This document shows, piece after piece, positions 9,958-54,854 of a stretch of 64,000 nucleotides of DNA. Under the pieces are notes generated by a model, which was given only the letters and a program-made list of their open reading frames with translations, was not told the DNA's origin and made no database searches. Numbering within the stretch: position 1 is the first letter of the stretch; each line of letters starts with the position of its first letter. Origin of the DNA: a virus; IMG/VR virus record IMGVR_UViG_3300032092_000011, positions 32,001 through 96,000 of that record. One strand, written 5' to 3'. The translations under genes were made by a program, and so were the position numbers.

Positions 9958-12900
9958 TTAGCAATCTAACTTTAGTTTCTCAATTTCTTGATAAAGTTCT
10001 TTAATTGCTTGAATTAAAATAGGAATTAATCCATCATAAATCACAGCTTTATATTCACTATTTGGTATATTTTTAACTAGATCAGGTACAATCTGTTCAA
10101 GCTCTTGTGCAATTACACCATAACTTAATTGTCCTGATTTATCTGGTGCCTTTCTAAGCATTTCTTCGCTCCAGTTATATGTAACACCATCAATACGCAT
10201 AATTAAATCTAACGCATTCTTAATAACCTCTATATTTGTCTTTAATCTAGCATCTGAAGAAATAGTTACATCAGAAAATGTTGGTGATGAATTAGTATTT
10301 ACATATTGGTTCATTGCCGACGCATAAACGTTTGAAGTTCCTGTTGGGCCTGTAGGACCTGTAGGACCTGTAGGACCTGTTGGACCAGGACCTCCATTAG
10401 AACCCGCAGGGCCGGTTGCACCTTGAGGACCAGTTGGGCCTGTAGGACCTGTAGGACCAGGACCTCCAGCTGAACCATCTCTACCAGTTGCACCTTGAGG
10501 ACCAGTTGGGCCTGTTGCTCCGGTTCCACCAGTTCCACCAGTAGGACCAGTTGCGCCTTGAGGACCAGTTGGGCCTGTAGGACCAGTTGCTCCTTGTGCT
10601 CCAGTCGAACCATTAGTACCATTAGTACCGGCAGGTCCAGTAGGACCAGTAGGACCTTGTCTACCTTGAGGACCTAGTGGGCCAGTTCCACCAGTCGCAC
10701 CAGTTGCTCCTTGAGCTCCAGTTCCTCCAGTTCCACCAGTCGGACCAGTTGCTCCTTGGGGACCGGTTGCTCCAGTTCCACCAGTTGAACCGGTAAAACC
10801 TTGAGGACCAATCGGGCCAGTAGGACCTGTTGGACCGGGACCTCCGGCTGAACCATCTCTACCAGTTGCACCTTGAAGACCAGTAGGACCTGTAGGACCA
10901 GTTGCTCCAGTTCCACCGGTTGGGCCTGTTGCGCCTTGAGGACCAATCGGGCCAGTAGGACCAGTTGCACCCTGTATACCAGTTGCACCAGTTCCACCAG
11001 TAGGACCTGTAAAACCTTGAGGACCAGTTGCTCCAGTTCCACCAGTCGAACCAGTTGCTCCTTGAGGTCCGGTTGAACCAGTATCTCCTTTAATACCAGT
11101 AGGACCTTGATTACCTTGAGGACCAGTTGCTCCTGTATTTCCAGTAATACCAGTAGGACCTTGATTACCTTGAGGACCAGTTGCTCCTGTATTTCCAGTA
11201 ATACCAGTAGGACCTTGATTACCTTGAGGACCTGTATTTCCTTGTAATCCAGTAGGACCTTGATTACCTTGAGGACCGGTTGGACCTTGACGACCTTGTG
11301 AACCAATTGGTCCAGTTGGTCCAGTTGGTCCAACTAAATTAATTGAAAGAAACCAAAGTTCTCCATCCCATTGATATAATCTTCCTGTATTTAAATCAAT
11401 ATAAGTTTGTCCAGCAAATTCTCCAAAACCAGATGGATCTCCATATCCTGATGTTGATCCATTAAATCCATTTGGTCCTGTTGCTCCAGTCCCACCATCG
11501 TTACCAGTTGGACCAGTTGGACCTTGTCTACCTTGTGCTCCAATAACTCCTTGCGGACCGGTAGGTCCTTGGTTACCTTGTGCTCCAGTAGTTCCTTGAA
11601 GACCAGTTGGACCTTGATTACCTTGTGCTCCAGTAGTTCCTTGTAATCCAGTAGGGCCTTGATTTCCTTGTGCTCCAGTAGTTCCTTGTAATCCAGTTGG
11701 GCCTTGGTTACCTTGAGCTCCAGTATTTCCTTGAGGTCCAATAGATCCTTGAATACCTTGAGATCCAATAGATCCTTGAATACCTTGAAGACCTTGAAGA
11801 CCGGTAGATCCTTGAATACCTTGAAGACCAGTAGATCCTTGAATACCTTGAAGACCAGTAGATCCTTGAATACCTTGAGCACCGGTATCACCCTTATCGC
11901 CAGTTGTTGTAAATGTTACAATTATATTTTCATTATCATTCCACGGGCCAGTTAAAGGTCCATCTACATAAGAAACTGGAATATCAAAATGATTTCCATG
12001 ATGAATATGTGATGCTGTAATAGCGTAAATTATATATGATGAGTTATTGCTCTCTTGTGTTAATTTAATATAACCTTTAACAGCACTTGTTGAATCATCA
12101 ATTGTTTGTAAAAAACTGCTAATATCTGTTGCAAGTCTATCGACACCTGAAATACCTAACAAAGTAGCAGCTCGAACATCATCACTAGTTATTAATATGT
12201 AACCGTCTGTTATATTTTCAATAAAAGTTTCGGTATCAAATCTATAATAAAAAGAAGCTCCACCAAAACTACCATCACGACCCTGATTACCTTGAGCTCC
12301 TACAGTTCCTTGTAAACCAGTCGGCCCTTGGTTACCTTGAGCTCCTACAGTTCCTTGTAAACCAGTCGGCCCTTGGTTACCTTGTGCTCCAGTAGTTCCT
12401 TGTAAACCGGTTGGACCTTGATTTCCTTGTAAACCAGTCGGTCCTTGATTACCCTGTGCTCCAGTAATTCCTTGTAAACCAGTCGGTCCTTGATTTCCTT
12501 GTGCTCCAGTAGTTCCTTGTAAACCAGTAATACCAGTCGGACCTTGATTACCTTGTGCTCCAGTAGTTCCTTGTAAACCAGTTGGACCTTGATTACCTTG
12601 TGCTCCAGTAGTTCCTTGTAATCCAGTTGGGCCTTGGTTACCTTGTGGACCAGTAATTCCTTGTAATCCAGTCGGTCCTTGGTTACCTTGTGGACCAGTA
12701 GGACCTTGACGGCCTTGAGAACCTGTAGCGCCTTGAGAGCCAGTAGCTCCAACCATATCAAATGAATAAACCCAAGTTTCTCCATCCCAAAAATATGCTC
12801 TACCAGTATTAATATCAATGTATGTCTGTCCATAAAAGTCTCCTTGTATTGAAGGAAGACCTTGAAAAGATAAAGTACCATTATATCCATTATTTCCTAT

Positions 12901-14334
12901 CGGACCCTGCACGCCCTGTGCTCCTGTATTTCCTTGATAACCAATAATACCTTGAAGACCCTGTGTTCCAACGGCACCTTGCGCTCCTGTTGCTCCTTGA
13001 TTTCCTTCAAGACCAGTAGGACCTTGACGACCTTGAGAACCCTGTACACCATCTATACCATCTCGACCCATGTCACCTTGAGGACCGGTAAATCCTTGGT
13101 CTCCTTGCCATCCCATCGAACCCATATCACCTTGAGGACCTGTCATACCCATGTCACCTTGAGGACCGGTAAATCCTTGGTCTCCTTGCCATCCCATCGA
13201 ACCCATGTCACCTTGAGGACCTGTCATACCCATGTCACCTTGAGGACCGGTAAATCCTTGGTCTCCTTGCCATCCCATCGGACCTATATCACCTTGAGGA
13301 CCTGTCATACCCATATCACCTTGAGGACCTGATGGACCTTGAATACCTGCAGCTCCTTGAACAGACATATCAGTAATATATGTCCATGAACCATTCCATA
13401 AATAGAGTGCTCCATAATCTGGATCTGTTTGGTCTAGCGCTCCTGCAACTAATCCAAATTGACCAATTGGGGTTTCAGTATATGATAATAAATTGTCTAA
13501 TGTATTAAATATTTGATGAATAATAAAACCTTGTCCACTAGCACCCTGAGAACCATCAGTACCACGATCACCTTGAGAACCTGCAGCACCTTGAGCACCG
13601 GTTGCTCCTTGAGCACCTGTTGCTCCTTGTGGACCTGTTGCTCCTTGAGCACCGTCATTTCCACCTTCACCCTGAATAGAAGGACCAGTAGGACCTTGAG
13701 GACCCCTAATATTTCCTTCTTGAAGCCAGTTATCTCCATCCCATTCATATAAATCGCCAGTATCAATGTCTATATACTGATCATTTCTAATAGGATTTGG
13801 GATAAGAACTGGTGTTTGAGGTATACCGCTTCCTGAATACCATTTAGAACCATCTTCTCCCGCAGCGCCTTGTACTCCCGCAGCGCCTTGTGTTCCTATA
13901 GAACCCTGTGCTCCTATTTCACCCTGTGCTCCTGTTGCTCCTTGTGCTCCATCTAATCCAGATCCACCTTCAAGAATTGTCCAAATACCGTTTCCTCCAT
14001 ATACTAAATTATATGCAGTGTATGGAACATCCATTGAAGAATATCCAATTGAATTGATATTAACACCATTTATAATTATATTAGCTGTTTCATCAGGATG
14101 CCTGATGATTTTAGGACCTCCATTGCTAATGACTCCATTAGGATCGCTAATAGAGAATGTCATTCCTGGTAAGAGTTTAATTCTACCAGATTGAACAGTT
14201 CTAGGAAGTCTAATATAAAAATCAGGACCGCCTGTTCCAGGCCCTAATATAAATTCTGAACTTGTTAATGGAAGGACATAATATGGTTGTCCACCTGTTG
14301 AAGTAATGGTACTAACATTAGTAAATGCTGACAT
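9958..14334 (-). CDS. collagen-like fibre protein with C-terminal peptidase S74 chaperone domain
   Basis: Long Gly-X-Y tracts; C-terminal SDARLKTNI...GVIAQE...LIQAIKEL. Confidence 0.85.
13070..13330 (-). repeat. 81-nt tandem repeat (about 3 copies) inside the collagen gene
   Basis: Encodes [27 protein letters not shown] three times, near-identical at DNA level. Confidence 0.8.
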
Positions 14335-26474: not shown

Positions 26475-27209
26475 TTAAGAAATTTTATTCTTGTCTGGAA
26501 CTGACATTTCTTTGATCCATTTCTTACCGATCGGATTCTCAACTGGTTTATGTGCTGATTTGCCAATAATGCGTTCCATTTCACTAACTGTACTATTATC
26601 GCTTCCTGAATTATCAACAATAAACATTTTATTCTTAAAGAAGTTTTGAAAACGACCTAGATTTTGTTGAACTTCTTTCCACATAGATTCAACCATTTCT
26701 GGAGCTAGTGTTCTCTGGCGCATCATATTTCTTTCCTGTGCCACTTCTAGAGAAGTATTTACAAAAATCATATGAACATCATACCCAAAATCTTTCAACA
26801 TAGTAGCCCATCCTGTGATTTTATCATAGTCCTTACCAGTACCATCAATAATCATGCCTAAACGACCATTAATATACGCATCCATTCGGTGCTTAGTAAC
26901 ATTCTTAGCCTTGTCTCTAAGTTTCATTACCTCATCCCAAGTTGTTGCATCATTTTTATAATCACCTAGTTTCGAGGCTTCATAACCCATTCTTTCAAGT
27001 TCATATTGAAATGCAAGATCTGAATTAATTAATTTTAGGCCAGTGCTCATTGAAAGAGTTGAGGTTGAGTCCTCTCTAAAGCCAAAAATTTGATTAACCA
27101 CATAAGATTTACCTGAACCTGGTCCACCAGCCATAAAATAGGCTTTTAGGATCCCTGGATCGTGAACTCCTTCACTAATAAACTGTTCAAATAATTTTAT
27201 ATGTTTCAT
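26475..27209 (-). CDS. CTS-tagged P-loop kinase (zeta-toxin/AAA_33/PNK-kinase-like)
   Basis: MKHIKLFEQFISE; FMAGGPGSGKS; IIDGTG; VNTSLEVAQERN..RQR lid. Confidence 0.75.
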   Translation of the reverse strand: MKHIKLFEQFISEGVHDPGILKAYFMAGGPGSGKSYVVNQIFGFREDSTSTLSMSTGLKLINSDLAFQYELERMGYEASKLGDYKNDATTWDEVMKLRDKAKNVTKHRMDAYINGRLGMIIDGTGKDYDKITGWATMLKDFGYDVHMIFVNTSLEVAQERNMMRQRTLAPEMVESMWKEVQQNLGRFQNFFKNKMFIVDNSGSDNSTVSEMERIIGKSAHKPVENPIGKKWIKEMSVPDKNKIS

Positions 27210-27210
27210 A

Positions 27211-27768
27211 TTAATATTCAAATGGAGGTGTTCCGTAATCAGAGTGTTTTACAGCATACCACATGCTAGCAGGACCTTGAATATACCACCAACCACGATC
27301 AGAATCTACCAGTTGATATTCACCTTTTAATTTAACATCTTTAAAACCACCTCTAGAGAAGTTTTTTGTTACTGGAACTCCATCGTCCCAAGTTTTATTA
27401 GTTGATTGAGCTTTAAAAGTTGTACCATCAAATTTACCTAGAAAAACTTTAGCATCATATCCATCAGCTTGCTCATCTTTTGCAAATTGATTAACTGCAC
27501 TTTCATTAGCTTCATTTACAGATTCTTTAACTGCAGCCTTGGCAAGTTTACCTAAATCTTGGTATTTGATGCCATATTTCATCAAACCATCTTCATCAGC
27601 ATACATATCTAAGAATTCTTCCATGCCTTTAACATCACCAGCACTAATTAGTTCATAGTATTCATCCTGTAATTCAGGATCTTCAGGCATCCATTTATCA
27701 ATGTTACCTAACGCATTTTGGATTTTGTCTTCATTAACGAAGCTTTCAAATAATTTTACCTTTTTCAT
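27211..27768 (-). CDS. CTS-tagged two-domain protein
   Basis: MKKVKLFESFVNE; internal KESVNEANES linker. Confidence 0.7.
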   Translation of the reverse strand: MKKVKLFESFVNEDKIQNALGNIDKWMPEDPELQDEYYELISAGDVKGMEEFLDMYADEDGLMKYGIKYQDLGKLAKAAVKESVNEANESAVNQFAKDEQADGYDAKVFLGKFDGTTFKAQSTNKTWDDGVPVTKNFSRGGFKDVKLKGEYQLVDSDRGWWYIQGPASMWYAVKHSDYGTPPFEY

Positions 27769-31726: not shown

Positions 31727-32473
31727 CTATATATTTTGCATAGATTGTTTAAACTCGGCAAGTCTCTTTTGAAACTCAGCGAAATAGTATTTTATGTCTT
31801 TTTCTGTCAATGTGAATATCTGCGGACATTCATCAATCTCATTAGCAATCCAAATTTCAGCGCCCATTGGTCGAATTCCAGTTCTTTCCCAAAATGCAAC
31901 GAAATAGGCTGCGGCCTGTAGATAATAATCTTGAATCCAATCATCTTTCTTAGGCTTTCGGCTATTTTTATAGTCAATAATAAGTACTCTTTGATTTATC
32001 AATCTTGAAACATTATCGACTGTTCCAGCATATCCACCACCCTTAATAGACCATAAGAATTTTTCAGCGGCTAAAACCTCTTCAATCTTATCAAAAAACT
32101 GATCATGATTGTTCCAAAACTTCATAAAGAATTTTAAGCCTTCTTCAATGAATTCTACATCAAATTTCTTGATTTCTCGATCTTTATATAAAACCTTTCT
32201 TAATTCACCTAGTCTTTCCTCTTTAGAACCCTTTATTTGCTTGTATAATTCTATAAGACGGTGCATAACAGTTCCCCTGTTTGCTGAAAGTGTTGAGATT
32301 CTATTAGCCTCTTCTTCTCCAACTCTCTGTCTCCATGAATCTAAACCAGACTGATCACTGGTTCCACCAAGAACCGTGGTTACAGACGGAAAGAGGCCAA
32401 GAATTTCTTTGCCTCTTTTGACTTGGTAAAACCTTTTACCCTTTATTTCAACTCGTTTGATTGTTTCACTCAT
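31727..32473 (-). CDS. PD-(D/E)XK exonuclease (Cas4/lambda-exo-like phage exonuclease)
   Basis: PSVTTVL, RGTVMHRLIE, YAGTVD, IIDYK, YYLQAAAY. Confidence 0.85.
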   Translation of the reverse strand: MSETIKRVEIKGKRFYQVKRGKEILGLFPSVTTVLGGTSDQSGLDSWRQRVGEEEANRISTLSANRGTVMHRLIELYKQIKGSKEERLGELRKVLYKDREIKKFDVEFIEEGLKFFMKFWNNHDQFFDKIEEVLAAEKFLWSIKGGGYAGTVDNVSRLINQRVLIIDYKNSRKPKKDDWIQDYYLQAAAYFVAFWERTGIRPMGAEIWIANEIDECPQIFTLTEKDIKYYFAEFQKRLAEFKQSMQNI

Positions 32474-35853: not shown

Positions 35854-36081
35854 CTACTTTTTCCAAGTTAATTTACCATCAACATGAATTTCTAAAATCT
35901 TAGATGCATCCTGTGAATTTAGAAGTGTGTTGACATATTTACTAGGATATTTAATCTTATCATAATCAACCGCATGTGTTTCAAATATAACCCTGACGAC
36001 TGAACCGCCTGGTTTGACTGAAAGATGATTAGTTCTCATCTCATCAGTTGGTTGATATAATTTTTTAAACTGTTCGTCCAT
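35854..36081 (-). CDS. hypothetical protein
   Basis: 75-aa ORF. Confidence 0.65.
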   Translation of the reverse strand: MDEQFKKLYQPTDEMRTNHLSVKPGGSVVRVIFETHAVDYDKIKYPSKYVNTLLNSQDASKILEIHVDGKLTWKK

Positions 36082-37369
36082 TTTCGTATACGTGTTTTAT
36101 AACTGGGAATCGAAGTGAATAACCACCATTTTGGTTTTGGCTCTCTTCAAAATACTGAACTGTGATTGTTTTACCAATGATTTCTCCAGGACTTGTGTAA
36201 TAATGTCTACGTTGTTCTTGACTAAATCCACTACCAACCTGAACTCGACAACCTTTATGTTCAATTACAACATTTCGCAACATGATTTCTTCAACCTCTT
36301 TACCATCAACAATTACTCGGTGAGGACCCATATCAACATCAACAACAACGTATTCTTCATCAAAGAATTGTTTAACTTTCATAATATCGTTGCTACGTTT
36401 TCCTTGGTATGCTGCATCTTTACGGAGCATTAAGCCTTCCCATTTGTTTTGAGTTGCAACTGCAAGGTGTTGTTGAAATTCTTCTTCAGTATCAACTTTA
36501 ACTTGCTCAAGTGGAGTAACAAAATCTAGTTCTCCAGCATAATTTTCAAACCAAGCTTTCATATTTGCTTGGCGTTCACTAAAAGTACGAACTGAAGATT
36601 GTGAACTAAATTCGCCAATCGTTAGCATATCAAATACAACAAATCTTGGTCGACGAATGGTATGATTTTTGCGTTTGATTTCCTTCATGATACCTTGGAA
36701 ATCTTCATTTCCGTTCTCATCCATGATACAAATTTCACCATCAAGAACCAAACTTTGTGGAATTCGACTTAATTCTTGTTGAATAACTCCAAGGGTTTCG
36801 AATTCATTTCCAGCGCGTGAGTAGAATTTTACTTCTCCGTTAGGCTGCATAATACAAATACAACGACAACCATCTAATTTACGACTTACGAACCACCTGT
36901 CTGACCACTTTACTTTCTTCTTTGTATCATTATTATAAGTCGCAGCTAGTGCAACCTCGAATGTCGGAATACATCCAGGAATCACTTTATTAATCATTGA
37001 TGTAGTTGATCGAGTTTTAAGGTTTCGATCAAGAATCATCCAAATTATCTCTTCGAATTCAGCATTTTCGCTAACAAACGTATTAACAGCTTGAATGGCG
37101 GAGTGGCCAGTGATATTACGATCACAGAGATCATCCAAAAGACTAAAAATATTAGTATAGTTGTTTTGTAGACCACGTAGGTCGTTGCGTTTTTGACAAT
37201 TTTTTGAAGTGACATAATATTGTTTAAAAGGCGAGTAAGTATACTCTAGAGCCTTAACAACTTCAGGATATTGAGAAAACTCTTTAATAACTGCAAGTTT
37301 GTCAGTGTTAGAGTTTGTCTGGTTTGATTTGTTTACAAAGTCCTGTAGTAGTTGTAACGTTTTTTCCAT
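36065..37369 (-). CDS. lig: ATP-dependent DNA ligase
   Basis: KLDGCR, LDGE, FDML, WEGLMLRK, VGSGFS, SLRFP; start moved to MEKTL. Confidence 0.95.
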   Translation of the reverse strand: MEKTLQLLQDFVNKSNQTNSNTDKLAVIKEFSQYPEVVKALEYTYSPFKQYYVTSKNCQKRNDLRGLQNNYTNIFSLLDDLCDRNITGHSAIQAVNTFVSENAEFEEIIWMILDRNLKTRSTTSMINKVIPGCIPTFEVALAATYNNDTKKKVKWSDRWFVSRKLDGCRCICIMQPNGEVKFYSRAGNEFETLGVIQQELSRIPQSLVLDGEICIMDENGNEDFQGIMKEIKRKNHTIRRPRFVVFDMLTIGEFSSQSSVRTFSERQANMKAWFENYAGELDFVTPLEQVKVDTEEEFQQHLAVATQNKWEGLMLRKDAAYQGKRSNDIMKVKQFFDEEYVVVDVDMGPHRVIVDGKEVEEIMLRNVVIEHKGCRVQVGSGFSQEQRRHYYTSPGEIIGKTITVQYFEESQNQNGGYSLRFPVIKHVYENGRTV

Positions 37370-37406
37370 ATTTATTTTATTTGATAATTTCAATTTGTTT
37401 AATTTG

Positions 37407-38506: not shown

Positions 38507-38907
38507 ATCTTTACAAGATTTACTTTAATTTTAGTTTCACCAAGAGCCCATGCCGTCATTAATCGATGGTGACCATCATAGATTGATATTCCATCTGAAA
38601 ATTGAACTACATTAATTATTGGTAATTTACCAGGCTCAGCAATCATTCTTTTTACTTTATTGGCCTGAATATTTGGTTGAGTTATTTGAATATCTTTTAC
38701 ATTTACTGATTTAACTTTTGCATCTTTTTGGTTAGATTCAAATGCCTCAATCACTTCACTCCAAGTATGCTTGCTTTTATCAAAAACACCATCAATTTTT
38801 TTGGCATCTTCAAAGGTTGCACCCTTTGGCAAATCATCAATTTTTTGATTTGCTAATTCAACCTTTGATTCGTTAATAAATTGCTCAAATAACCTTACGA
38901 ATTTCAT
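38503..38907 (-). CDS. CTS-tagged ParB/Srx-like domain protein
   Basis: MKFVRLFEQFINE; ITQPNI...IYDGHHRL. Confidence 0.75.
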   Translation of the reverse strand: MKFVRLFEQFINESKVELANQKIDDLPKGATFEDAKKIDGVFDKSKHTWSEVIEAFESNQKDAKVKSVNVKDIQITQPNIQANKVKRMIAEPGKLPIINVVQFSDGISIYDGHHRLMTAWALGETKIKVNLVKI

Positions 38908-39644
38908 TATTTCTTTGGTTCTTTTTTATCATAATATTCCCAAACCTCATCTAATTGTTTAGGATCTACTAACCAACTTTCCCACCAGCCACCTCCAACT
39001 TCTTCAACAAGAGATCCGTCTTTTAATTTACGATATTCTTTCTCGTGAACTGTAATTTTAAAAGTTTTAGGTATAAATGGTAATGATTTAATATATTGAA
39101 ATGAACCGACCTTTTCATCACTGCCTTCGGTGATAGAAACGCCATTTCCAGTAAATCCATAATCTTTTCCTTCAGGTACAAATACGATTGCATTCAGATA
39201 GTAAGGTTTACCATCTTTACCCTGTTTAAATACAGAACTAAGTCTTTTATTTTGAAATGTTCCAGTTCCTTCTTCAGCATCTTCATAAACTGAGCAATCT
39301 GACCATTCATCATCAGTACATTCAATACCTTCACCAAGAGGCTCTTGTGCCAACATCTTTTTAATAGTATCAACAATTGCTCCAGCCGTAAAAGGCGCTG
39401 AAGCTCCAGATTGACCTGATTGTCCAAATTTATCAACAAGTGCTTCAATTTCTGGTACAAATTCGGCTATTAAAAGATTTTTACCTTCTTTTTCTGCTTT
39501 ATCTAAAAGTCTCTTTAATTCAGGATATTTAGATTCATTAAGAGATTCAACTTGAATCATCTTAATTCCTTCATGCAGAACTTTAACCAATTCCATCCTA
39601 ATAGAATCCGTTAAAAACTCTTCAAATAATTTTATCTTTTTCAT
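38907..39644 (-). CDS. CTS-tagged hypothetical protein
   Basis: MKKIKLFEEF; internal VESLNES. Confidence 0.7.
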   Translation of the reverse strand: MKKIKLFEEFLTDSIRMELVKVLHEGIKMIQVESLNESKYPELKRLLDKAEKEGKNLLIAEFVPEIEALVDKFGQSGQSGASAPFTAGAIVDTIKKMLAQEPLGEGIECTDDEWSDCSVYEDAEEGTGTFQNKRLSSVFKQGKDGKPYYLNAIVFVPEGKDYGFTGNGVSITEGSDEKVGSFQYIKSLPFIPKTFKITVHEKEYRKLKDGSLVEEVGGGWWESWLVDPKQLDEVWEYYDKKEPKK

Positions 39645-43345: not shown

Positions 43346-43407
43346 TACGGGATGCTGTTTTGCTTTTTCCAATAAAAGTTTGTAAATTTGCTGAAAGCAT
43401 CCCTGTA
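43346..43407 (-). ncRNA. CAGCAAA-scaffold ncRNA, copy 1 (hairpin cargo)
   Basis: GGGATGC-TTTCAGCAAAT-...CTTTT attgga AAAAG...AAAACA-GCATCCC. Confidence 0.6.
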
Positions 43408-44066: not shown

Positions 44067-44270
44067 TTACCAAGAATCCTCATCTGTTAAATCTAACTCA
44101 AGTTTAGTTAAGTGATTGTATACTTTAATAGAAGATCCCATACCGTACGAAGTAACTGACCATGTCATTAGGCCATATTCTCCGAACAGATCTTTAATCT
44201 TTTTAGCCCATTCATCAAATTTGGACTATTGTTCGTCGGATAATTCGATTTGTATTACTTTATTTGACAT
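44067..44270 (-). pseudogene. 67-codon phage gene with an in-frame TAG at codon 15
   Basis: MSNKVIQIELSDEQ*SKFDEWAKKIKDLFGEYG...ELDLTDEDSW fills the gap exactly; TAG at 44226-44228. Confidence 0.65.
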
Positions 44271-44937
44271 AAGCTTTTCTAAATAACATTACAACATCCA
44301 TAGCATCTTCAATTGCATTGTGTGTTACCACATCTCCTAATCCGGCACGTTCTTTACAAAGGCTAAGTCCAGGAGCGCAATCATCATTTTGCCAATCAAT
44401 AAATAGGACAGATGGATCTAGAGTTCGGCCACGAGCTTTTAAACATTGCTTCCATCTTGGTAACCTTTCTAAAAACTTGTTATCAAAGTTGGCAAAGTTC
44501 TTACCAGCTGCATTAAAGTAAAAAGGTTTCATTTTGGAAGTTAAAGCTGGATATGATTTACCATTAACGATTTCAAAATGACCGGTTGGATCGTATTTAC
44601 CATCTAGTGCACCATTATCATATAGGAATTGAAAGATTCTCTTTGCTACATCTTCTTCATAAAGATATTCACGACCAGTTCGTTGCTCAATTTCTTTACG
44701 TTCTTCATCAGTTCTAGCCAATTTGTATTCTAAAATGTCGGCAATTAGTTGACGATTCATATTAATCGCAAAGATTTCACCTTCAATTCTTTCACGAATA
44801 ATGGCAATTTCTAGTTTTGGTAATTCTTCAATTGGTTTAATATCAATAGTATCTTCTACTACTAATCCAATTGATAATGTCTGTGTTGATTCGTTATCGA
44901 TTCCGGTGGTTTCGATATCAATGCTTACGTATTTCAT
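44260..44937 (-). CDS. DEDDh 3'-5' exonuclease
   Basis: SIDIETTG, GKNFANFD, HNAIEDA. Confidence 0.85.
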   Translation of the reverse strand: MKYVSIDIETTGIDNESTQTLSIGLVVEDTIDIKPIEELPKLEIAIIRERIEGEIFAINMNRQLIADILEYKLARTDEERKEIEQRTGREYLYEEDVAKRIFQFLYDNGALDGKYDPTGHFEIVNGKSYPALTSKMKPFYFNAAGKNFANFDNKFLERLPRWKQCLKARGRTLDPSVLFIDWQNDDCAPGLSLCKERAGLGDVVTHNAIEDAMDVVMLFRKAYVK

Positions 44938-45527
44938 ATTAAAAATTTTAAGATTTCTTCTTTAACACCGCTCTGTTTGATTCCTTCTCGATTACGAGGA
45001 GTATGAACAAAATTTGTTAATCCTGGCTTTTTATCACTACTATCTTTAGAAGCAAATCGATCGCCTAAGAATTTAACACTCATATCTAAATCATCAATGG
45101 CAACCCAATGTGTAATTTCTGGGTGATTTTCAACCCAATGATTGATTTCCATGCTACGTTCTAGTTCTAATTCAGCTCTAAAACGAAAACCAGACCATTC
45201 GCTTGGATACAGGTCTTTAAACATATCAGTCGTTGCAATTGGAGCCTTAATAATACCTTGATTTAAGTAGTATTCTCCTAATTCTTGTAAATTAGCATGC
45301 AATCTCCAATCAGAACTAACTACAATTTCAGCTCCAGTTTGTTCTAAAATTTCATTTAAGATTTTAATTGCTTTTTTATCAAAATTATCGAATCTGTATT
45401 CGACTGGCATTTCACGAGTAGTCATGGATAGTTTCCTACCACCCCATTCCTTTTGCTTTTTGAAGCGACCGCCCCAATTATCAGCAAGGCAAATTACGCC
45501 ATCGTTATCTAAAAATACAATTTTCAT
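44934..45527 (-). CDS. HAD phosphatase (Swiss-Army-knife RNA-repair-like)
   Basis: FLDNDGV, IVVSSDWR, WVAIDD. Confidence 0.8.
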   Translation of the reverse strand: MKIVFLDNDGVICLADNWGGRFKKQKEWGGRKLSMTTREMPVEYRFDNFDKKAIKILNEILEQTGAEIVVSSDWRLHANLQELGEYYLNQGIIKAPIATTDMFKDLYPSEWSGFRFRAELELERSMEINHWVENHPEITHWVAIDDLDMSVKFLGDRFASKDSSDKKPGLTNFVHTPRNREGIKQSGVKEEILKFLI

Positions 45528-46766: not shown

Positions 46767-46771
46767 ATTAT

Positions 46772-46858
46772 GGGTAGGATCAGACGTGTTCTGCATAGCA
46801 GGTCTGCCTACCGAGACCTCGTCGTTAACTTTCGTCAGAGCGTACCGAGACACTAGGT
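46772..46858 (-). ncRNA. candidate structured RNA
   Basis: GC-rich; GGTAGG/CCTACC, CAGAC/GTCTG and CTGC/GCAG stems; GAAA tetraloop hairpin. Confidence 0.4.
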
Positions 46859-46867
46859 AAAAATAAC

Positions 46868-46986
46868 AGGATGGGTTTTGTACGTGCTCTACCAACTGAG
46901 CTACTGGTCCCGAGAGATCAGGCCGGACTCGAACCGACGACCACGAGGTTAACAGCCTAGATTTTATTATTTGCAGTAACCATCCT
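46868..46986 (-). ncRNA. CAGCAAA-scaffold ncRNA, copy 2, carrying a circularly permuted tRNA-Asn(GUU)
   Basis: AGGATGG-TTACTGCAAAT...AGG CTGTTAA CCTCG TGGTC GTCGG TTCGAGT CCGGC CTGATCT ctcg GGACCAG TA GCTC AGTTGGTA GAGC A CG...AAAAC-CCATCCT. Confidence 0.85.
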
Positions 46987-47956: not shown

Positions 47957-47974
47957 TGTTCTATAATATATTTC

Positions 47975-48106
47975 GGATTCCTGTTATATGGACCAGCGCG
48001 TTTACCAATTTCGCCACCCTTCAGATTATTTATTCGATTGTTGAAGGGGTAGGACTCGAACCTACAGTATACCGGTTTCTTTCCTTAATTTTGCTGTAAG
48101 GAATCC
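47975..48106 (-). ncRNA. CAGCAAA-scaffold ncRNA, copy 3, carrying a permuted tRNA (Leu-type D-loop)
   Basis: GGATTCC-TTACAGCAAAA...ACCGG TATACT GTAGG TTCGAGT CCTAC CCCTTCA [18 nt] TGAAGGG TGGCGAAATTGGTAAACGC G CTGGT...AACA-GGAATCC. Confidence 0.8.
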
Positions 48107-48109
48107 ATT

Positions 48110-48458: not shown

Positions 48459-48465
48459 AAATTTG

Positions 48466-48537
48466 CTCCCCGGGTAGGATTTGAACCTACGACCACACGA
48501 TTAACAGTCGCGTGCTCTACCACTGAGCTACCGAGGA
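48466..48537 (-). tRNA. tRNA-Asn(GUU)
   Basis: CGCGA-CTGTTAA-TCGTG. Confidence 0.95.
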
Positions 48538-49029: not shown

Positions 49030-49035
49030 AGATAC

Positions 49036-49093
49036 TGGATGCGCTTGTGTCAAAGTTAAAGTTTGATTTTGTAAAATTTGCTGCATGCATCCA
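49036..49093 (-). ncRNA. CAGCAAA-scaffold ncRNA, copy 4 (anticodon-like hairpin cargo)
   Basis: TGGATGC-ATGCAGCAAAT-...TCAAA CTTTAAC TTTGA...-GCATCCA. Confidence 0.65.
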
Positions 49094-49099
49094 AAATTC

Positions 49100-49886: not shown

Positions 49887-52800
49887 TTATCCGCAATAAA
49901 GATAACCGTAGATTCCAGTTGCCTTACCTTCACTATCAAAAGTACAATCTTCCATACATTTACCCAATGTAAATGAATTTATAGTTTGTCTTTCCTCGTA
50001 TTGAGGTGTTCCATTGTCAAATCCAATAATGACATATTCAACTGGTTGTTTCATTGCGTATCCTGGTACGTCAGAAGAACATAGTAAATCTCCTTTTAGA
50101 ACTGGACCATTTTGGTTACATACTTTTATACCTTGTAATCCTGTTTTAGCATCGAATGAATCTCCTAATGAAGCAACTCTCCATATACTTTTTTGATTTC
50201 TGTCCGCCAATGGTATTTTATTTCCAAATGAATCTCTATATTGATAATCTTTTTCTGAAGTATCTTTTCCATTTATTAAGAATCTATCTAATGGACTTTC
50301 CTGTATAGAAAAATCAACTTCTTGCCATAAAATACCAACAATTGCCGGGTCTTTTGCAGAAGATGCTTTAACTAATTCATTGTTTCCATCTAATTTAACA
50401 AGATCTCCAACTTCTAATATAACATCATTTCTTTTAGTATATTGGTGAGACAATGTTGTTGCTATTGCTTCTCCATATGGTTGCTCACGAGGATCTGTAC
50501 CTCCTCTGTAATTTACATAGTCATCTGCGAGTAATTCAAAATCTTGTTGATATTGAATAAAATTAGTTTTCGTTGATTCAAAATCAGTTTTAAAAGCACC
50601 AAATCTTGTAGTTCCAATGTACGCATCATTTCTCATTTTAAGCATTTGACGTGCACCTAATTCCGGATCTTCAACGATGTCAACTTCAAAGAAATCATTC
50701 ATTGGACTTCCGCCTACCGTAGCACCTGAAGTAATATCAATATCTCCTTTAAATGCTGCGGTACCGTCTGGTGCAATATAGAAGTTTTTAGCATTGATTG
50801 CACCTAGATCTAAGTTAATACCCATACCAGCCGTAGAATAAGTATTCCATGCTGATGTGTGATTTGCTGGGAAGTTACCATTCTTAATTATACCAGTAGT
50901 TATCTTTCCACCATCAATAGTAGTGGATGTTGTTAAAAACTGAGAAGTATCTGGAGCTGGACCTTGTGGACCTGTGGCTCCCTGAATAGATTTTGCAAAA
51001 CTTTGAGTTTTAGTAAAGCTAAAACTTGCACCATTTGCTCTTTTTCCAGAAATCGTGTATGTTATCGATGCTGTATTAGCTGTCATATTATTATGATCGC
51101 CAATCGTTGCATAATTACCGCTATCAGTAATACTTCCCGGAGTAATTGAACTACCTGTTCTTGTTAAAGTCCATCTACTAGCAGAGGTTCCTGATCCATC
51201 ATAAATTAATTCAGTAGCTCCTTCATATAATCTTATGGTAGTTCCTGAACCAGTATAAGTAACAACACCAGCACTAGTTGTAGGTAAAGTATGCGCTTCA
51301 TTACTAAGAATTACTGTCATACCATCAGTACCAGGTGCTCCATCGATACCATTAACGCCATCAACTCCGTCTCTACCATTAACGCCATCAACTCCGTCTC
51401 TACCATTAGTACCATTAGTACCATTAGCACCATTAGTACCATTAGTTCCTGGTTTAATTCCAGACATTGTGATTTGGTCACGTGCTAAAACTGTACCTGT
51501 TGTACCGCCTTCTCTAATCTGTACTTCTATTTTGTCAGGCATACTGTCAAAACTAGATTGTGGAGTATATGTGTATGTTGTAGAAGTACCATTTTGAACA
51601 GATACATCATTTTTAAAGAATTGATAATATACAGTTCCGCTTGTATTTAAAGCAGCTGCAGTAATTGTAGTGCTTGTAGGAGATGGAGTTGTTCCAGAAG
51701 TATTATATACAAATACCTGATCTACACAAGTTAGGTTTACAGCTCTTGCATTTGCTCCAGCTGCACCGTCTGCTCCGTCTGCACCGTCAACACCATTAGC
51801 ACCTTGAATAGATTTTGCAAAACTTTGAGTTTTAGTAAAGCTAAAGCTTGTACCATTTGCTCTTTTTCCAGTAATAGCATACACTATAGAAGCTACGTTA
51901 GCAGTCATGTTGCTGTGATCGCCAATCGTTGCATAATTACCGCTATCAGTAATACTTCCCGGAGTAATTGAACTCCCTGTTCTTGTTAAAGTCCATTTAC
52001 CAGCGGTAGAACCAGATCCATCATAGACTAATTCAGTAGCGCCTTCATATAATCTTATAGTAGTTCCTGAACCAGCATATGTAACTGTTCCTGTGTTTGT
52101 TGTTGGCAGAGTATGTGCTTCATTACTAAGAATTACTGTCATACCATCAGTACCAGGTGCTCCATCGATACCATTAACGCCATCAACTCCGTCTCTACCA
52201 TCAGTACCATCAGTACCATTAGTTCCTGGTTTAATTCCAGACATTGTGATTTGGTCACGTGCTAAAACTGTGCCTGTTGTACCGCCTTCTCTAATCTGTA
52301 CTTCTATCTTGTCAGGCATGCTAGCAAAACTAGATTGTGGAGTATATGTGTATGTTGATGCTGTCCCATTTTGAACAGATACATCATTTTTAAAGAATTG
52401 ATAATATACAGTTCCGCTTGTATTTAAAGCAGCGGCTGTTATTACTGAACTAACTGGTGAAGGATTTGTTCCGGACGCATCATATACAAATACCTGATCT
52501 ACGCAAGTTAGGTTTACGGCTCTTGCATTTGCTCCAGCTGAACCGTCTGCTCCGTCTGCTCCGTCAACACCGTCAGCTCCTTTGACTAAAACCCAATTAT
52601 AAAGTGATGAATCTGTTGAATCAGCTTCGGTAAAATCAGTATAAGTTCCCATATACTCTCTACCAGTCGGATCGCTTACGCTAAAATCAATAATTTGATT
52701 GCTGCCATTTTTATTTGCATATGCAATATGTAAATATGAAGTTTGTCCATCAACACCATTAACACCAGGAAGACCATTCTCACCATTAGCTCCATCAGCA

Positions 52801-54854
52801 CCTTTAACTAATTGCCATTTCCATAAAGTACTTCCAGATGGTGCATCAGCAGCGGTTGTATCAACATAAGTACCTATGTATAATTTTCCGGCTGCGTTTT
52901 GACTAAAGCCTCCTCCAGAAGCATTGTCAGCATATGCAATGTGAAAATACGTTGAAACACCATCAGCGCCAGGAGCACCAGGAAGACCATCTGCACCGTC
53001 TAAACCATTAGTACCTGGGGCACCTTGTGGGCCAGGAGCTCCATCTACACCATTAGTACCAGCAGGACCTTGTGGACCGGCAGAAAAACTAACAGCTCCA
53101 TTAAATGCAACTTGTCCATCGATAATAGAGAATGGAGTTAATAATTGTCCATTTGGACCTCCAGTAGATACTTTAAAAGAATCTGCTGTAAATGAAATTG
53201 AACTACCTGTTTCATCAGCTCCTAATCTCATTCCAGCAACATTACCATCAGCATTTACTTCTAGAGTATATTGTGCATTTACTTTATTAGTAAGAGCATT
53301 AATATCAGCACTCATTGATTGAGTTACTCCAGCAGTTTGTTCTTCTAATTCTGCTATTAAATTAGTTGTTGAAGTTACAGTTGCTTGATTAGCAGTTGCA
53401 ATTGCTGAATCAATAACTGTTTTAAGAGCAGAAGACTGGCTAAAACCAGTTATTGATCCATTATCTATTGTATATTGTGCTTCTAGTGTATTTAATCTAG
53501 TTACAGTTGCTCCATCACCATTACTTAAAGAAGCAATCTCTTCACTAATATTTGTTAATGCCTCTGCTCTAATAGCAGCTTCTCCAGCAATTGCTTCAGC
53601 AATATCAACTTCGAATTGCGTACCTAAATTAGTAACTGAAAGAGCAACGGCTTCATTAGCAGTTGTTAATGCGGATATTGAACTTTCAACTCCTGCAATT
53701 GCCTGTGTTCTTAAAAGATTTTGATTATCTTCTAGGTCTGTTAAATCACTTGCAAATGAAGCACTTAAATTAGTTACTGCTTGTGCAGTTGCTGAATTAG
53801 CATCATTTAACGTAGTCAATGTTTGATTTATACTGGAAATTGCTGATGTTCTTGCTTGAGTTTCAATTCCTAAAAGTCGTGCTCTTTCAGCAGCTTCTTC
53901 AGCAATAGCACTAACTCTTTCAGCAGCTTCTGCTTCTAAATCTTCAATTGTTGCTAATCCAGTTAAATCAGCACCTGGAATTGAACTTACAGCACTTTGA
54001 ATTGCTGATGTTCTAGCCAATACTTCAGCTGCTAGAGCATTTTGTCTTGCTAATGCTTCAGTTGAAATTGCTCCAGTAATTTCACTAGTAAAAGATGTGC
54101 TTAAATCCGTAACTGATTGCGCAGTTGCTTCATTAGCATTAGATAGTGAAGTTAAAGTTTGATTAATATCTGAAATTGCAGATATTCTTAATGCTGCTTC
54201 AGAACTAACAGCAGCTTCAATTTCAGCTTCAAAAGAAGTATTTATATTATTTACTGTTTCGGCAAGAGCTTCATTAGCATTAGATAATGAAGTTATAGTT
54301 TGATTTATATTTGAAATTGCAGCTGTTCTTGCTAATGTTTCAGCGCCAACTGCTGTTTCAATTTCAGCTTCAAAAGAAGTATTTATATTATTTACAGTTT
54401 GTGCGAGTGCTGAATTTGAATTAGCTAATGTTGTTAATTGACTAGTTACGCTTGTTAATGCTTGTGTTCTAGCTGTTGTTTCTAAACCAATAACTCGGGC
54501 TCTTTCAGCTGCTTCTTCTAATAATCTACTATTAGTAACTAATTCATTACCATTAACTTGCATATTACCATTAGCCATGCTAATTGAATTTGATCCAAGA
54601 TAGATTGTGCTGTTACTTAAGTAAATATCTCTAAATCTTAGAGTTGGCGTACCTAAATCATGAATTTCATTTTGATCAGGTATAATACTAAATGCAACTT
54701 GTCCATTAAAAGACGAACCAGTCCCGCCTTCAAAACCATCAAGTAGTTCAGAAATTTCAGTAAGTTGCTGATTAATTGCAGCAAAATTATCGTTAAGCGT
54801 TTTACGCGAATCTTTTATACCATCGGTTCCTAGTAGTGGTGTTATTGAAGCCAT
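49887..54854 (-). CDS. mosaic tail fibre / host-specificity protein
   Basis: Coiled-coil repeats; lambda J/DUF1983-like YTLEVNADGNVAGMRLG..FTADSF; HIAYA..GTY repeats; collagen linkers; C-terminal NQNGPVLKGDLLCSSDVPGYAMKQ chaperone-like domain. Confidence 0.8.
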   Translation of the reverse strand: MASITPLLGTDGIKDSRKTLNDNFAAINQQLTEISELLDGFEGGTGSSFNGQVAFSIIPDQNEIHDLGTPTLRFRDIYLSNSTIYLGSNSISMANGNMQVNGNELVTNSRLLEEAAERARVIGLETTARTQALTSVTSQLTTLANSNSALAQTVNNINTSFEAEIETAVGAETLARTAAISNINQTITSLSNANEALAETVNNINTSFEAEIEAAVSSEAALRISAISDINQTLTSLSNANEATAQSVTDLSTSFTSEITGAISTEALARQNALAAEVLARTSAIQSAVSSIPGADLTGLATIEDLEAEAAERVSAIAEEAAERARLLGIETQARTSAISSINQTLTTLNDANSATAQAVTNLSASFASDLTDLEDNQNLLRTQAIAGVESSISALTTANEAVALSVTNLGTQFEVDIAEAIAGEAAIRAEALTNISEEIASLSNGDGATVTRLNTLEAQYTIDNGSITGFSQSSALKTVIDSAIATANQATVTSTTNLIAELEEQTAGVTQSMSADINALTNKVNAQYTLEVNADGNVAGMRLGADETGSSISFTADSFKVSTGGPNGQLLTPFSIIDGQVAFNGAVSFSAGPQGPAGTNGVDGAPGPQGAPGTNGLDGADGLPGAPGADGVSTYFHIAYADNASGGGFSQNAAGKLYIGTYVDTTAADAPSGSTLWKWQLVKGADGANGENGLPGVNGVDGQTSYLHIAYANKNGSNQIIDFSVSDPTGREYMGTYTDFTEADSTDSSLYNWVLVKGADGVDGADGADGSAGANARAVNLTCVDQVFVYDASGTNPSPVSSVITAAALNTSGTVYYQFFKNDVSVQNGTASTYTYTPQSSFASMPDKIEVQIREGGTTGTVLARDQITMSGIKPGTNGTDGTDGRDGVDGVNGIDGAPGTDGMTVILSNEAHTLPTTNTGTVTYAGSGTTIRLYEGATELVYDGSGSTAGKWTLTRTGSSITPGSITDSGNYATIGDHSNMTANVASIVYAITGKRANGTSFSFTKTQSFAKSIQGANGVDGADGADGAAGANARAVNLTCVDQVFVYNTSGTTPSPTSTTITAAALNTSGTVYYQFFKNDVSVQNGTSTTYTYTPQSSFDSMPDKIEVQIREGGTTGTVLARDQITMSGIKPGTNGTNGANGTNGTNGRDGVDGVNGRDGVDGVNGIDGAPGTDGMTVILSNEAHTLPTTSAGVVTYTGSGTTIRLYEGATELIYDGSGTSASRWTLTRTGSSITPGSITDSGNYATIGDHNNMTANTASITYTISGKRANGASFSFTKTQSFAKSIQGATGPQGPAPDTSQFLTTSTTIDGGKITTGIIKNGNFPANHTSAWNTYSTAGMGINLDLGAINAKNFYIAPDGTAAFKGDIDITSGATVGGSPMNDFFEVDIVEDPELGARQMLKMRNDAYIGTTRFGAFKTDFESTKTNFIQYQQDFELLADDYVNYRGGTDPREQPYGEAIATTLSHQYTKRNDVILEVGDLVKLDGNNELVKASSAKDPAIVGILWQEVDFSIQESPLDRFLINGKDTSEKDYQYRDSFGNKIPLADRNQKSIWRVASLGDSFDAKTGLQGIKVCNQNGPVLKGDLLCSSDVPGYAMKQPVEYVIIGFDNGTPQYEERQTINSFTLGKCMEDCTFDSEGKATGIYGYLYCG
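50984..52570 (-). repeat. internal tandem duplication (~0.8 kb, 2 copies) in the fibre gene
   Basis: GANARAVNLTCVDQVFVY...KTQSFAKSIQG block repeated with high DNA identity. Confidence 0.85.

Follow-up and report, generated by a model that had tools for sequence, protein, structure and literature searches.

An RNA gene in a viral transfer RNA (tRNA) island, at positions 46868-46986 of a 64,000-nucleotide (nt) stretch of DNA (positions 32,001 to 96,000 of IMG/VR virus record IMGVR_UViG_3300032092_000011; the whole stretch is referred to as the window), is the subject of this analysis. Read from 46986 to 46868 on the minus strand, the intergenic element specifies a 119-base RNA, and the comparison with homologues and with Rfam identifies it as a Y-RNA-like tRNA mimic of the YrlA type. 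It is probably a bait-carrying partner RNA rather than a working tRNA, judging from sequence comparison. A Y RNA bearing a permuted tRNA mimic is an already known kind of molecule. What appears to be new relative to the searchable literature is an extra hairpin that completes an anticodon arm under selection, a subclass with a CAGCAA handle tied to a DUF2828-vWA protein of predicted Ro60 fold, and a modular cargo on the shared handle. Searchable full texts on DUF2828, on permuted tRNA together with bacteriophage, and on YrlA or Y RNA together with phage contain no description of this RNA class. The record itself is a 109.8-kilobase (kb) viral contig with a CheckV completeness estimate of 42%, which puts the full genome at about 260 kb. 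Its helicase is closest to those of very large Bacteroidota phages, with 45% identity to that of an uncultured 462-kb phage, followed by the helicases of phages of Chryseobacterium, Prevotella (Lak), and Tenacibaculum; the host of this large phage is probably a member of the Bacteroidota. The window contains 25 tRNA genes, all on the minus strand, and the normal tRNA-Asn(GUU) reported in an earlier sequence-only reading of this DNA was found about 1.5 kb from the element.

Direct reading of the element bears out the arrangement proposed in that reading: along the minus strand, an anticodon hairpin is followed by a variable loop, a T arm, the two strands of an acceptor stem joined by a 4-nt loop, and a D arm (Table 1). 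Likewise, the CG that follows the D arm and the AGG of the hairpin rebuild a 5-base-pair (bp) anticodon stem with its strand break between positions 28 and 29, comprising C27-G43, G28-C42, A29-U41, G30-C40, and G31-C39 around the 7-nt loop C-U-GUU-A-A, and the whole is enclosed by an AGGATGG/CCATCCT helix. This closing helix is extendable outward by pairing of AAAATAA with TTATTTT round a GT bulge, and the minimum-free-energy fold does extend it. The nucleotides conserved in YrlA-type RNAs are present, namely U8 and A9 before the D stem, A14 and G15, G18 and G19, C48, and UUCGAGU, and the partners of the tRNA tertiary contacts are readable as U8/A14, G15/C48, G18G19 with the T-loop UUC, and U54/A58. 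When the sequence is rejoined in silico, with the acceptor loop cut and position 28 joined to 29, ARAGORN returns a cloverleaf tRNA-Asn(gtt). Specific descent from the resident tRNA-Asn was considered and rejected, as the rejoined sequence shares 53 identities with tRNA-Asn versus 56 with tRNA-Phe. The sealed acceptor comprises seven pairs, with one C/A mismatch (C4/A69) and one G-U, and has no free 3' end, no discriminator base, and no CCA. Because this end is closed by a loop, the element cannot be charged. The single-sequence thermodynamic fold is not significant (z = -0.67), and the structural support therefore rests on the comparison of homologues.

Homologues were collected by two pattern scans of IMG/VR, each yielding at least 120 contigs, and the class counts given here are drawn from the matches listed. 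At least 120 viral contigs carry CAGCAA upstream of a T arm, which in turn precedes a D arm. A set of 105 non-redundant RNAs, chosen irrespective of pairing in the anticodon arm, shows a closed acceptor between a T arm and a D arm, with no tRNA downstream. In 67 of these 105 RNAs among the matches listed, the split arm is perfectly paired over 5 bp around a 7-nt loop, compared with a mean of 4.7 and a maximum of 13 when both partner strands are permuted among the RNAs. Of the five bases that precede the variable loop, one to four are paired by the 3' tail past the D arm and the rest by the local strand. The strand break shifts in relatives (2+3, 3+2, 1+4, and 4+1 pairs; positions 27/28 to 30/31) and the total stays constant at 5 bp. 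Some hairpins of the class are only 2 bp long, which makes sense only if they are stacked on the tail helix. The loops of the 67 RNAs share an anticodon-loop signature, with U33 in 60 (90%), a purine at position 37 in 64 (96%), and A38 in 58. The acceptor in relatives varies from 3 to 10 uninterrupted pairs, most commonly 8.

The sequence-only reading had staked its interpretation on covariation of the tRNA arms in homologues, and such covariation is present. A MAFFT alignment was made of 34 RNAs that share the 2+3 layout of the window's element; since these rows were picked for split-stem pairing, only the covariation, and not the percentage paired, serves as evidence in that stem. The covariation score is 0.878, versus 0.189 for shuffled alignments (0 of 500 as high) and at most 0.195 with the partners slid. 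Two-sided changes, with at least four types per pair, are seen throughout the split stem (five pairs) and the acceptor (seven pairs); specifically, both tail pairs (27-28 with 42-43) show two-sided changes with four pair types each, and the T arm covaries at three of its five pairs. The closest homologue, L073, is 87% identical over 124 nt and is flanked by tRNA-Pro and tRNA-Leu in a tRNA island of 7.7 kb. This copy retains AGGCTGTTAACCTCG, the CTGCAAA handle, and the anticodon hairpin, and its acceptor is fully compensated (8 bp with a UUCG loop). A further instance is found in mycobacteriophage ArcherS7, in which the match to the YrlA model lies 190 nt upstream of the annotated Ro gene and the arm reads GGUUAC-CUC-AUUGCAA-GAG-AG-AGGUC, with a CU after the D arm whose CU/AG pairs complete the stem. 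These comparisons indicate that the split anticodon arm in phage RNAs is real, widespread, and under selection.

The assignment to the YrlA type follows from a search of Rfam, in which YrlA (RF02553), the nearest relative named in the sequence-only reading, is the sole family matching the element. The match spans 46854-46970 with 43.5 bits (E value 2.9e-8 for the region and 9.4e-10 for the genome), and the alignment covers the model in full length (model positions 1-114). YrlA RNAs place the T arm first, then a closed acceptor and the D arm, and their paired ends form a protein-binding stem for Ro60 (PMC4201824; 10.1101/312249); the element has this topology, with the T arm 5' of the D arm and a closed acceptor-like stem-loop between them. 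The score lies below the YrlA gathering threshold of 69 bits, and at gathering thresholds the window yields tRNAs only, while a permissive Rfam search over the element reveals no ribozyme and no family besides YrlA. For the RNA next to the Ro gene of ArcherS7 the score is only 36.1 bits, and 12 loci from phages encoding a TROVE protein are also below the threshold, which makes this threshold a poor test for phage members. The motif GNCGAAN0-1G, a proposed contact of the bacterial Ro60 protein Rsr in YrlA (PMC4201824), is absent near the 5' end of the element, which reads AGGATGG-TTA-CTGCAAA, and no TROVE gene is present within 4 kb of the element or anywhere in the 109.8-kb record (42% complete). 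Chen et al. (2014) reported a fourth stem-loop on the 5' side of the T arm, labelled 'V' and of lower conservation, which they took to be the variable arm (PMC4201824); a reading of this hairpin as an anticodon arm was not found in the accessible YrlA literature. The statement in the sequence-only reading that YrlA RNAs have no anticodon loop is correct for the crystallised Salmonella RNA (10.1101/312249) and does not extend to the family as a whole, as the ArcherS7 RNA has the split arm.

A second conserved feature of these RNAs is the handle. Among the matches listed, 73 closed-acceptor RNAs carry it behind a covarying closing helix; the layout consists of a helix of 6-9 bp, usually AGR...YCU, followed by 0-4 nt, CAGCAA, A-rich linkers, and a G plus a U-rich tail. 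The element fits this layout (AGGATGG-TTA-CTGCAAA ... CCATCCT-GTTATTTTT), and A-rich linkers are general in the RNA class. RNAs from the TROVE phages bear another 5' motif, G(Y)G(Y)AGA ... GGUUAC. TROVE was present in 29 of the 45 records of an initial, mixed collection, and all RNAs bearing the CAGCAA handle fell among the other 16. When records were instead selected by the handle, only 1 of 47 encoded TROVE, as did 1 of the 17 with a completeness of 90% or more. Clustering of the open reading frames (ORFs) in the flanks yielded one dominant family, present at 25 of 71 fetched loci, with proteins of 470-590 amino acids (aa). This family corresponds to Pfam DUF2828 plus DUF7788 with weak vWA matches, and its gene often adjoins the RNA on the same strand. 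DUF7788 is encoded in 19 of 22 complete genomes without TROVE, versus 0 of 15 with TROVE. Two of the three genomes that have neither carry a third RNA kind, which has no handle.

The candidate partner protein of the handle subclass was characterised through its family profile. Compared with the PDB by sequence, the profile matches the vWA domain only. The AlphaFold model built from the family alignment (predicted local distance difference test 77; predicted template modelling score 0.74) matches Ro60 along its entire length, about 540 columns, with 2i91 and 1yvp as the top structures (E value 1e-10), followed by the Ro60 of phage phiLo and Rsr of Deinococcus. On the strength of this match of the predicted fold, the partner of the subclass is a Ro60-fold paralogue missed by the Pfam TROVE model. 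As a separate observation, the third YrlA-like kind of RNA (loci L040, L041, L101, and L123; records G008, G009, G034, and G041) is marked by the motif UUGGGGAACUAU and a full 5-bp stem formed from the two ends, and two phage genomes of this kind rated 100% complete have neither TROVE nor DUF7788.

Four handle cassettes sharing a GGAT-type helix lie between genes of the window, each on the same strand as the tRNAs, and their cargo differs (Table 1). Cassettes 1 and 4 carry the handle with little or no tRNA body, which points to the handle as the constant functional part. An orthologue of cassette 1 with the same helix is kept in L254, a close relative of this phage, and in L257, just upstream of tRNA-Leu. 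In cassette 3, the two ends form a 5-bp stem, ACCGG/CTGGT; a T arm, an acceptor of 7 bp capped by a long loop, and a D arm of Leu type complete the cargo, which gives a partial YrlA match of 18.3 bits. The triplet in the cassette 4 hairpin is UUA. A whole-genome scan for a helix, CWGCAA, and the returning helix strand did not outperform shuffled sequence (33 matches versus 9-22), and of these matches only the four tRNA-island cassettes with the GGAT-type helix are credible. A further handle cassette, TGGGATAC ... CAGCAAC ... GTATCCCG, was observed at L254:8908-8968 and L257:8907-8968, shortly before tRNA-Thr; none of the window's four cassettes corresponds to it.

Table 1. Parts of the element, its sister cassettes, and neighbouring features, in window coordinates
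Feature	Positions	Strand	Description
Closing helix, 5' strand	46980..46986	minus	AGGATGG; pairs with 46868-46874; direct reading
Spacer between closing helix and handle		minus	TTA, 3 nt; direct reading
Handle	46970..46976	minus	CTGCAAA, variant of the class consensus CAGCAA(A); 3 nt past the helix
5' linker	46959..46969	minus	TAATAAAATCT; A-rich, single-stranded, 11 nt; direct reading
Putative anticodon-arm mimic	46944..46958	minus	AGG (29-31), loop CTGTTAA (32-38, triplet GUU), CCTCG (39-43)
Variable loop	46939..46943	minus	TGGTC; C48 is the Levitt-pair partner of G15; reading and YrlA-model alignment
T arm	46922..46938	minus	GTCGG-TTCGAGT-CCGGC; reading and YrlA-model alignment
Sealed acceptor	46904..46921	minus	CTGATCT-CTCG-GGACCAG; direct reading
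U8 A9 and D arm	46886..46903	minus	GCTC-AGTTGGTA-GAGC; reading and YrlA-model alignment
A26, then C27 G28	46883..46885	minus	C27 G28 pair with C42 G43, completing the anticodon stem over the strand break
3' linker	46875..46882	minus	TACAAAAC; A-rich, 8 nt; direct reading
Closing helix, 3' strand	46868..46874	minus	CCATCCT; direct reading
Tail	46858-46867	minus	GTTATTTTTA; G plus U-rich tail after CCATCCT, common in the class
Sister cassette 1	43349..43403	minus	GGGATGCT helix and CAGCAAA handle; no tRNA-like cargo
Sister cassette 3	47974..48107	minus	TGGATTCCT helix and CAGCAAA handle; plain YrlA topology, no anticodon loop
Sister cassette 4	49035..49094	minus	TTGGATGC helix and CAGCAAA handle; sole cargo an anticodon-like hairpin, TCAAA-CTTTAAC-TTTGA
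tRNA-Asn(GUU)	48465-48537	minus	normal gene
Spacer between element and tRNA-Gly	46767-46867	minus	about 100 nt
Tad3 protein	38907-39644	minus	245 aa
HAD_SAK_2 'Swiss Army Knife' protein	44934-45527	minus	RNA-repair type
Exonuclease-like protein	44260-44937	minus	RNA-repair type
ATP-dependent DNA/RNA ligase	36065-37393	minus	RNA-repair type
Zeta-toxin/AAA_33-type kinase	26475-27221	minus	RNA-repair type
Collagen-repeat protein	9958-14334	minus	1458 aa
Collagen-repeat protein	49887-54854	minus	1655 aa

The best explanation, which we hold to be fairly probable, is that the element is a two-module Y-RNA-like RNA, in which a Ro60-docking handle is combined with a sealed tRNA-Asn look-alike serving as bait. 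The closing helix, C(A/U)GCAA(A), and the A-rich linkers would constitute the first module, a conserved handle and, from the genomic association in other phages, the likely dock for the DUF2828-vWA protein of Ro60 fold. The second module would be the circularly permuted tRNA-Asn(GUU) shape, with T arm, D arm, and tertiary partners intact, the acceptor sealed, and the anticodon arm restored by the stacking of a local 3-bp hairpin on 2 bp that the 3' tail supplies. In such a particle, the ring protein may be held by the handle, and the flexible A-rich linkers may extend the uncharged tRNA look-alike, to be recognised by a protein that reads the tRNA elbow and the anticodon loop. The RNA could thus act as a bait, decoy, or adaptor in a phage-host conflict over tRNAs. 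The candidate targets are host tRNA-targeting nucleases, or tRNA repair or modification enzymes, as this phage encodes 25 tRNAs as well as repair-type enzymes and an anti-defence gene. In known Ro60 particles, the Y RNA tethers a second protein, for example PNPase in Deinococcus and in phiLo (PMC4201824, PMC12135203). The decoy or bait idea fits the sealed acceptor, the loop with its anticodon signature, and the handle, which is tied elsewhere to a Ro60-fold protein; both the binding in this phage and the bait function are what we infer from these features.

The loop triplets offer a possible link to tRNA-targeting defence. The commonest triplets among the 67 RNAs are UGU (11), UUU (10), and GUU (9), together 30 of 67, and the nuclease AriB of the PARIS system cleaves tRNAs of these three identities, Lys UUU, Thr UGU, and Asn GUU (PMC12409363). 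The three triplets account for 45% of the mimics versus 24% of real phage tRNAs with the same D-arm/T-loop pattern from the same loci (binomial p = 1.5e-4), an enrichment biased by the search patterns and by related sequences in the sample. The match of the triplets to the AriB targets is suggestive, a lead rather than a result.

Besides this bias, several observations weigh against the two-module explanation. No match to TROVE, DUF2828, DUF7788, or the family profile was found in the 109.8-kb record (42% complete), and the same searches of ten related contigs (helicase identity 42-78%, each 4-36% complete) gave none. Since the record and these fragments are only 4-42% complete, the result amounts to absence of evidence, and a partner protein in this phage is conjectural. 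Neither of the ORFs on either side of the element (321 and 344 aa) shows a relation to the DUF2828 profile; they belong to no Pfam or PHROG family, and a search of viral contigs for relatives of the upstream 321-aa ORF gave none. The handle of the element reads CUGCAAA rather than CAGCAAA, a variant common only to L073. Neither L254 nor L257 contains the element; in L254 it is missing at the matching site, where a homologue of the 321-aa ORF abuts the conserved spacer found downstream of the element in the window. Its absence from this site and the presence of the L073 copy in another context suggest that the element is mobile or dispensable. Scans for promoters and terminators at the element were uninformative. 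Furthermore, the hairpin is putatively an anticodon-arm mimic if it stacks on the 27-28/42-43 pairs, and would be a 'V arm' if it branches.

A search of the phage collection with 500 nt around the element matched only the neighbouring tRNA-Gly, and a tblastn comparison of all ORFs in the record with the 16 TROVE-less loci revealed no shared protein, which suggests that the RNA class crosses unrelated phages. The sequenced phages nearest by helicase (LR756500, Chryseobacterium MA9V-2, and Tenacibaculum PTm1) have no DUF7788. A candidate relative in LR756500 was rejected: that genome has no cassette with CAGCAA and a T arm, and its weak YrlA match is a tandem tRNA pair.

Two of the alternatives dispense with a phage-encoded partner. 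The sealed tRNA-Asn shape might by itself soak up an anticodon nuclease or a tRNA-targeting defence protein, with no Ro60-like partner in this phage and with the handle and helix merely stabilising the RNA or defining its ends. Such a stand-alone decoy agrees with the lack of a Ro60-fold gene in the record and the ten related fragments, with the lack of DUF7788 in the phages nearest by helicase, and with an anticodon-loop signature under selection in which the AriB targets GUU, UUU, and UGU dominate (PMC12409363). However, the handle sequence is conserved far past the needs of helix stability and tracks the DUF2828 gene in complete genomes (19/22 vs 0/15), often lying adjacent to it, and cassettes 1 and 4 carry the handle with little or no tRNA body; we therefore consider this alternative unlikely, while giving it some weight. 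Alternatively, the element could be a classical YrlA RNA that borrows the host Ro60 (Rsr), loading onto the bacterial TROVE protein and redirecting it, for example with PNPase, along the lines proposed for Thermus phage phiLo. The YrlA topology and the sub-threshold YrlA match are compatible with this scenario, as are the TROVE gene present in a Bacteroides control genome and the complex that phiLo Ro60-Yrl RNAs form with host PNPase (PMC12135203). Its probability appears low, given that the Rsr-binding motif GNCGAAN0-1G (PMC4201824) is absent, that the TROVE-linked phage RNAs bear the other motif, G(Y)G(Y)AGA ... GGUUAC, and that the CAGCAA class almost never occurs alongside TROVE.

The sequence-only reading had raised the idea of a circularly permuted precursor tRNA, in which the scaffold is excised, positions 28 and 29 are ligated via a circle, and the acceptor loop is opened to give a working tRNA-Asn. 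Permuted tRNA genes in red algae and in some archaea do have this gene order, the rejoined sequence is called as tRNA-Asn, Wang et al. raised the possibility for YrlA generally (10.1101/312249), and the YrlA RNA of M. smegmatis is a substrate of RNase P (PMC4201824). Nevertheless, this fate is very improbable, as no bulge-helix-bulge is present: the strands leave the stem as A-rich single strands of 21 nt and 8 nt, and there are no 3-nt bulges flanking a 4-bp helix. The acceptor contains the C/A mismatch and no discriminator or CCA, its length varies and the break point moves in relatives, and many loops of the class, such as those that end in GGA, do not correspond to real anticodons. The window also has a normal tRNA-Asn(GUU) 1.5 kb away, and a bacterial splicing endonuclease is not known (10.1101/312249). 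A comparably slight chance is assigned to a functionless remnant, left over from two tandem tRNAs or from recombination. Exactly such an arrangement, in which one tRNA supplies the anticodon arm, variable loop, and T arm and a second then supplies the 5' acceptor strand and the D arm, would remain under the dimeric-tRNA model of YrlA origin (cited in 10.1101/312249), and the cassette is absent from the close relative L254. The covariation contradicts this explanation, with compensatory changes in every helix over dozens of unrelated phages; moreover, the handle is conserved, and an 87%-identical copy exists in another genomic context.

The surroundings of the element contain further features of interest. 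The 245-aa protein encoded about 7 kb from the element matches Pfam Tad3, a type I Thoeris inhibitor (E value 3.3e-15), and its gene adjoins that of a Rad3-type helicase. Four genes of RNA-repair type lie on the same strand (Table 1). The two giant proteins with collagen triple-helix repeats, one of which divides the tRNA island, are probably tail fibres, as one of them ends in an endosialidase-chaperone domain. The spacer between the element and tRNA-Gly is conserved at L254:5351-5403, reading GTGTCTCG..GCTCTGACGAAAGTTAACGACGAGGTCTCGGTAGGCAG...GTCTGATCCTACCCATAAT; the two versions differ only by an 11-nt hairpin tip, present in the window, and in both the spacer ends at the 5' end of the tRNA gene. 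The fold of the spacer is not significant (z = -0.84), and Rfam contains no match to it; a role as a conserved leader of the tRNA or as a processing element is possible. At the tRNA-Gly site, L254:5404-5520 holds a tRNA-like gene with the acceptor GCAAGAA/TTCTTGC and normal D and T arms that receives no ARAGORN call; about 30 extra bases take the place of its anticodon arm and variable region.

Comparison with known systems places the element closest to YrlA. As in YrlA, the T arm precedes the D arm, the acceptor is closed, the tertiary partners are kept, and the 5' and 3' ends are paired; the genes lie among or beside tRNA genes, with several different RNAs per genome. Even the split arm recurs, as CUC-AUUGCAA-GAG plus CU/AG, in the YrlA-model match next to the Ro gene of ArcherS7. 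In contrast to YrlA, C(A/U)GCAA follows a short helix in place of GNCGAAN0-1G, long A-rich linkers replace the continuous stem, the protein linked to the class is DUF2828-vWA and not Pfam TROVE, and the score is 43.5 against a threshold of 69. Unlike the crystallised YrlA, which is without an anticodon loop (10.1101/312249), the element has an anticodon-like loop. The Thermus phage phiLo, which encodes Ro60 together with Yrl1 and Yrl2, similarly combines a phage Ro60-fold protein with partner RNAs by the gene (PMC12135203), and a role in countering host functions has been proposed for its RNA-protein complexes (PMC12135203), as it is here for the class. The phiLo Ro60, however, is a recognisable homologue, its RNAs were found via the CGAA motif, and tRNA-shaped cargo with an anticodon loop is undescribed there (PMC12135203). 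In Cyanidioschyzon merolae and some archaea, permuted tRNA genes (cited in 10.1101/312249) also place the 3' half first, close the acceptor, and pair the ends by the anticodon stem. They differ in their bulge-helix-bulge, their processing through a circle, their status as the sole copy of a working tRNA, and their exact 7-bp acceptors. The tRNA-Lys, tRNA-Thr, and tRNA-Asn of phage T5, which act against PARIS AriB, share with the element a location in a phage tRNA island, the same anticodon identities, and a tRNA-centred conflict (PMC11464382, PMC12409363). The T5 variants, on the other hand, are real, chargeable tRNAs that replace cleaved host tRNAs (PMC11464382, PMC12409363), whereas the element is unchargeable and could act only by binding.

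Ro60 and Y RNAs are conserved from bacteria to humans. Many phage members of the class described here, including one beside a mycobacteriophage Ro gene, mimic a whole tRNA with a selected anticodon arm, which suggests that the effector of the Y-RNA tRNA-like domain may read anticodon loops. A different handle travelling with DUF2828-vWA would widen the family of Ro60 particles, and the cargo appears modular, with four kinds in this window alone. A broader reading, which we offer tentatively and regard as doubtful at present, is that large phages carry a second, hitherto undescribed Ro60/Y-RNA branch, in which a DUF2828-vWA ring on the CAGCAA handle presents interchangeable cargo and forms a programmable anti-defence tRNA decoy. 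If this were true, the cargo would range over whole sealed tRNAs, bare anticodon arms, or nothing, and GUU, UUU, and UGU would be chosen to trap, sense, or pass to repair enzymes the host anticodon nucleases, such as PARIS AriB and those of the PrrC type. Such a branch would also provide a testable function for the tRNA-like domain of classical YrlA RNAs.

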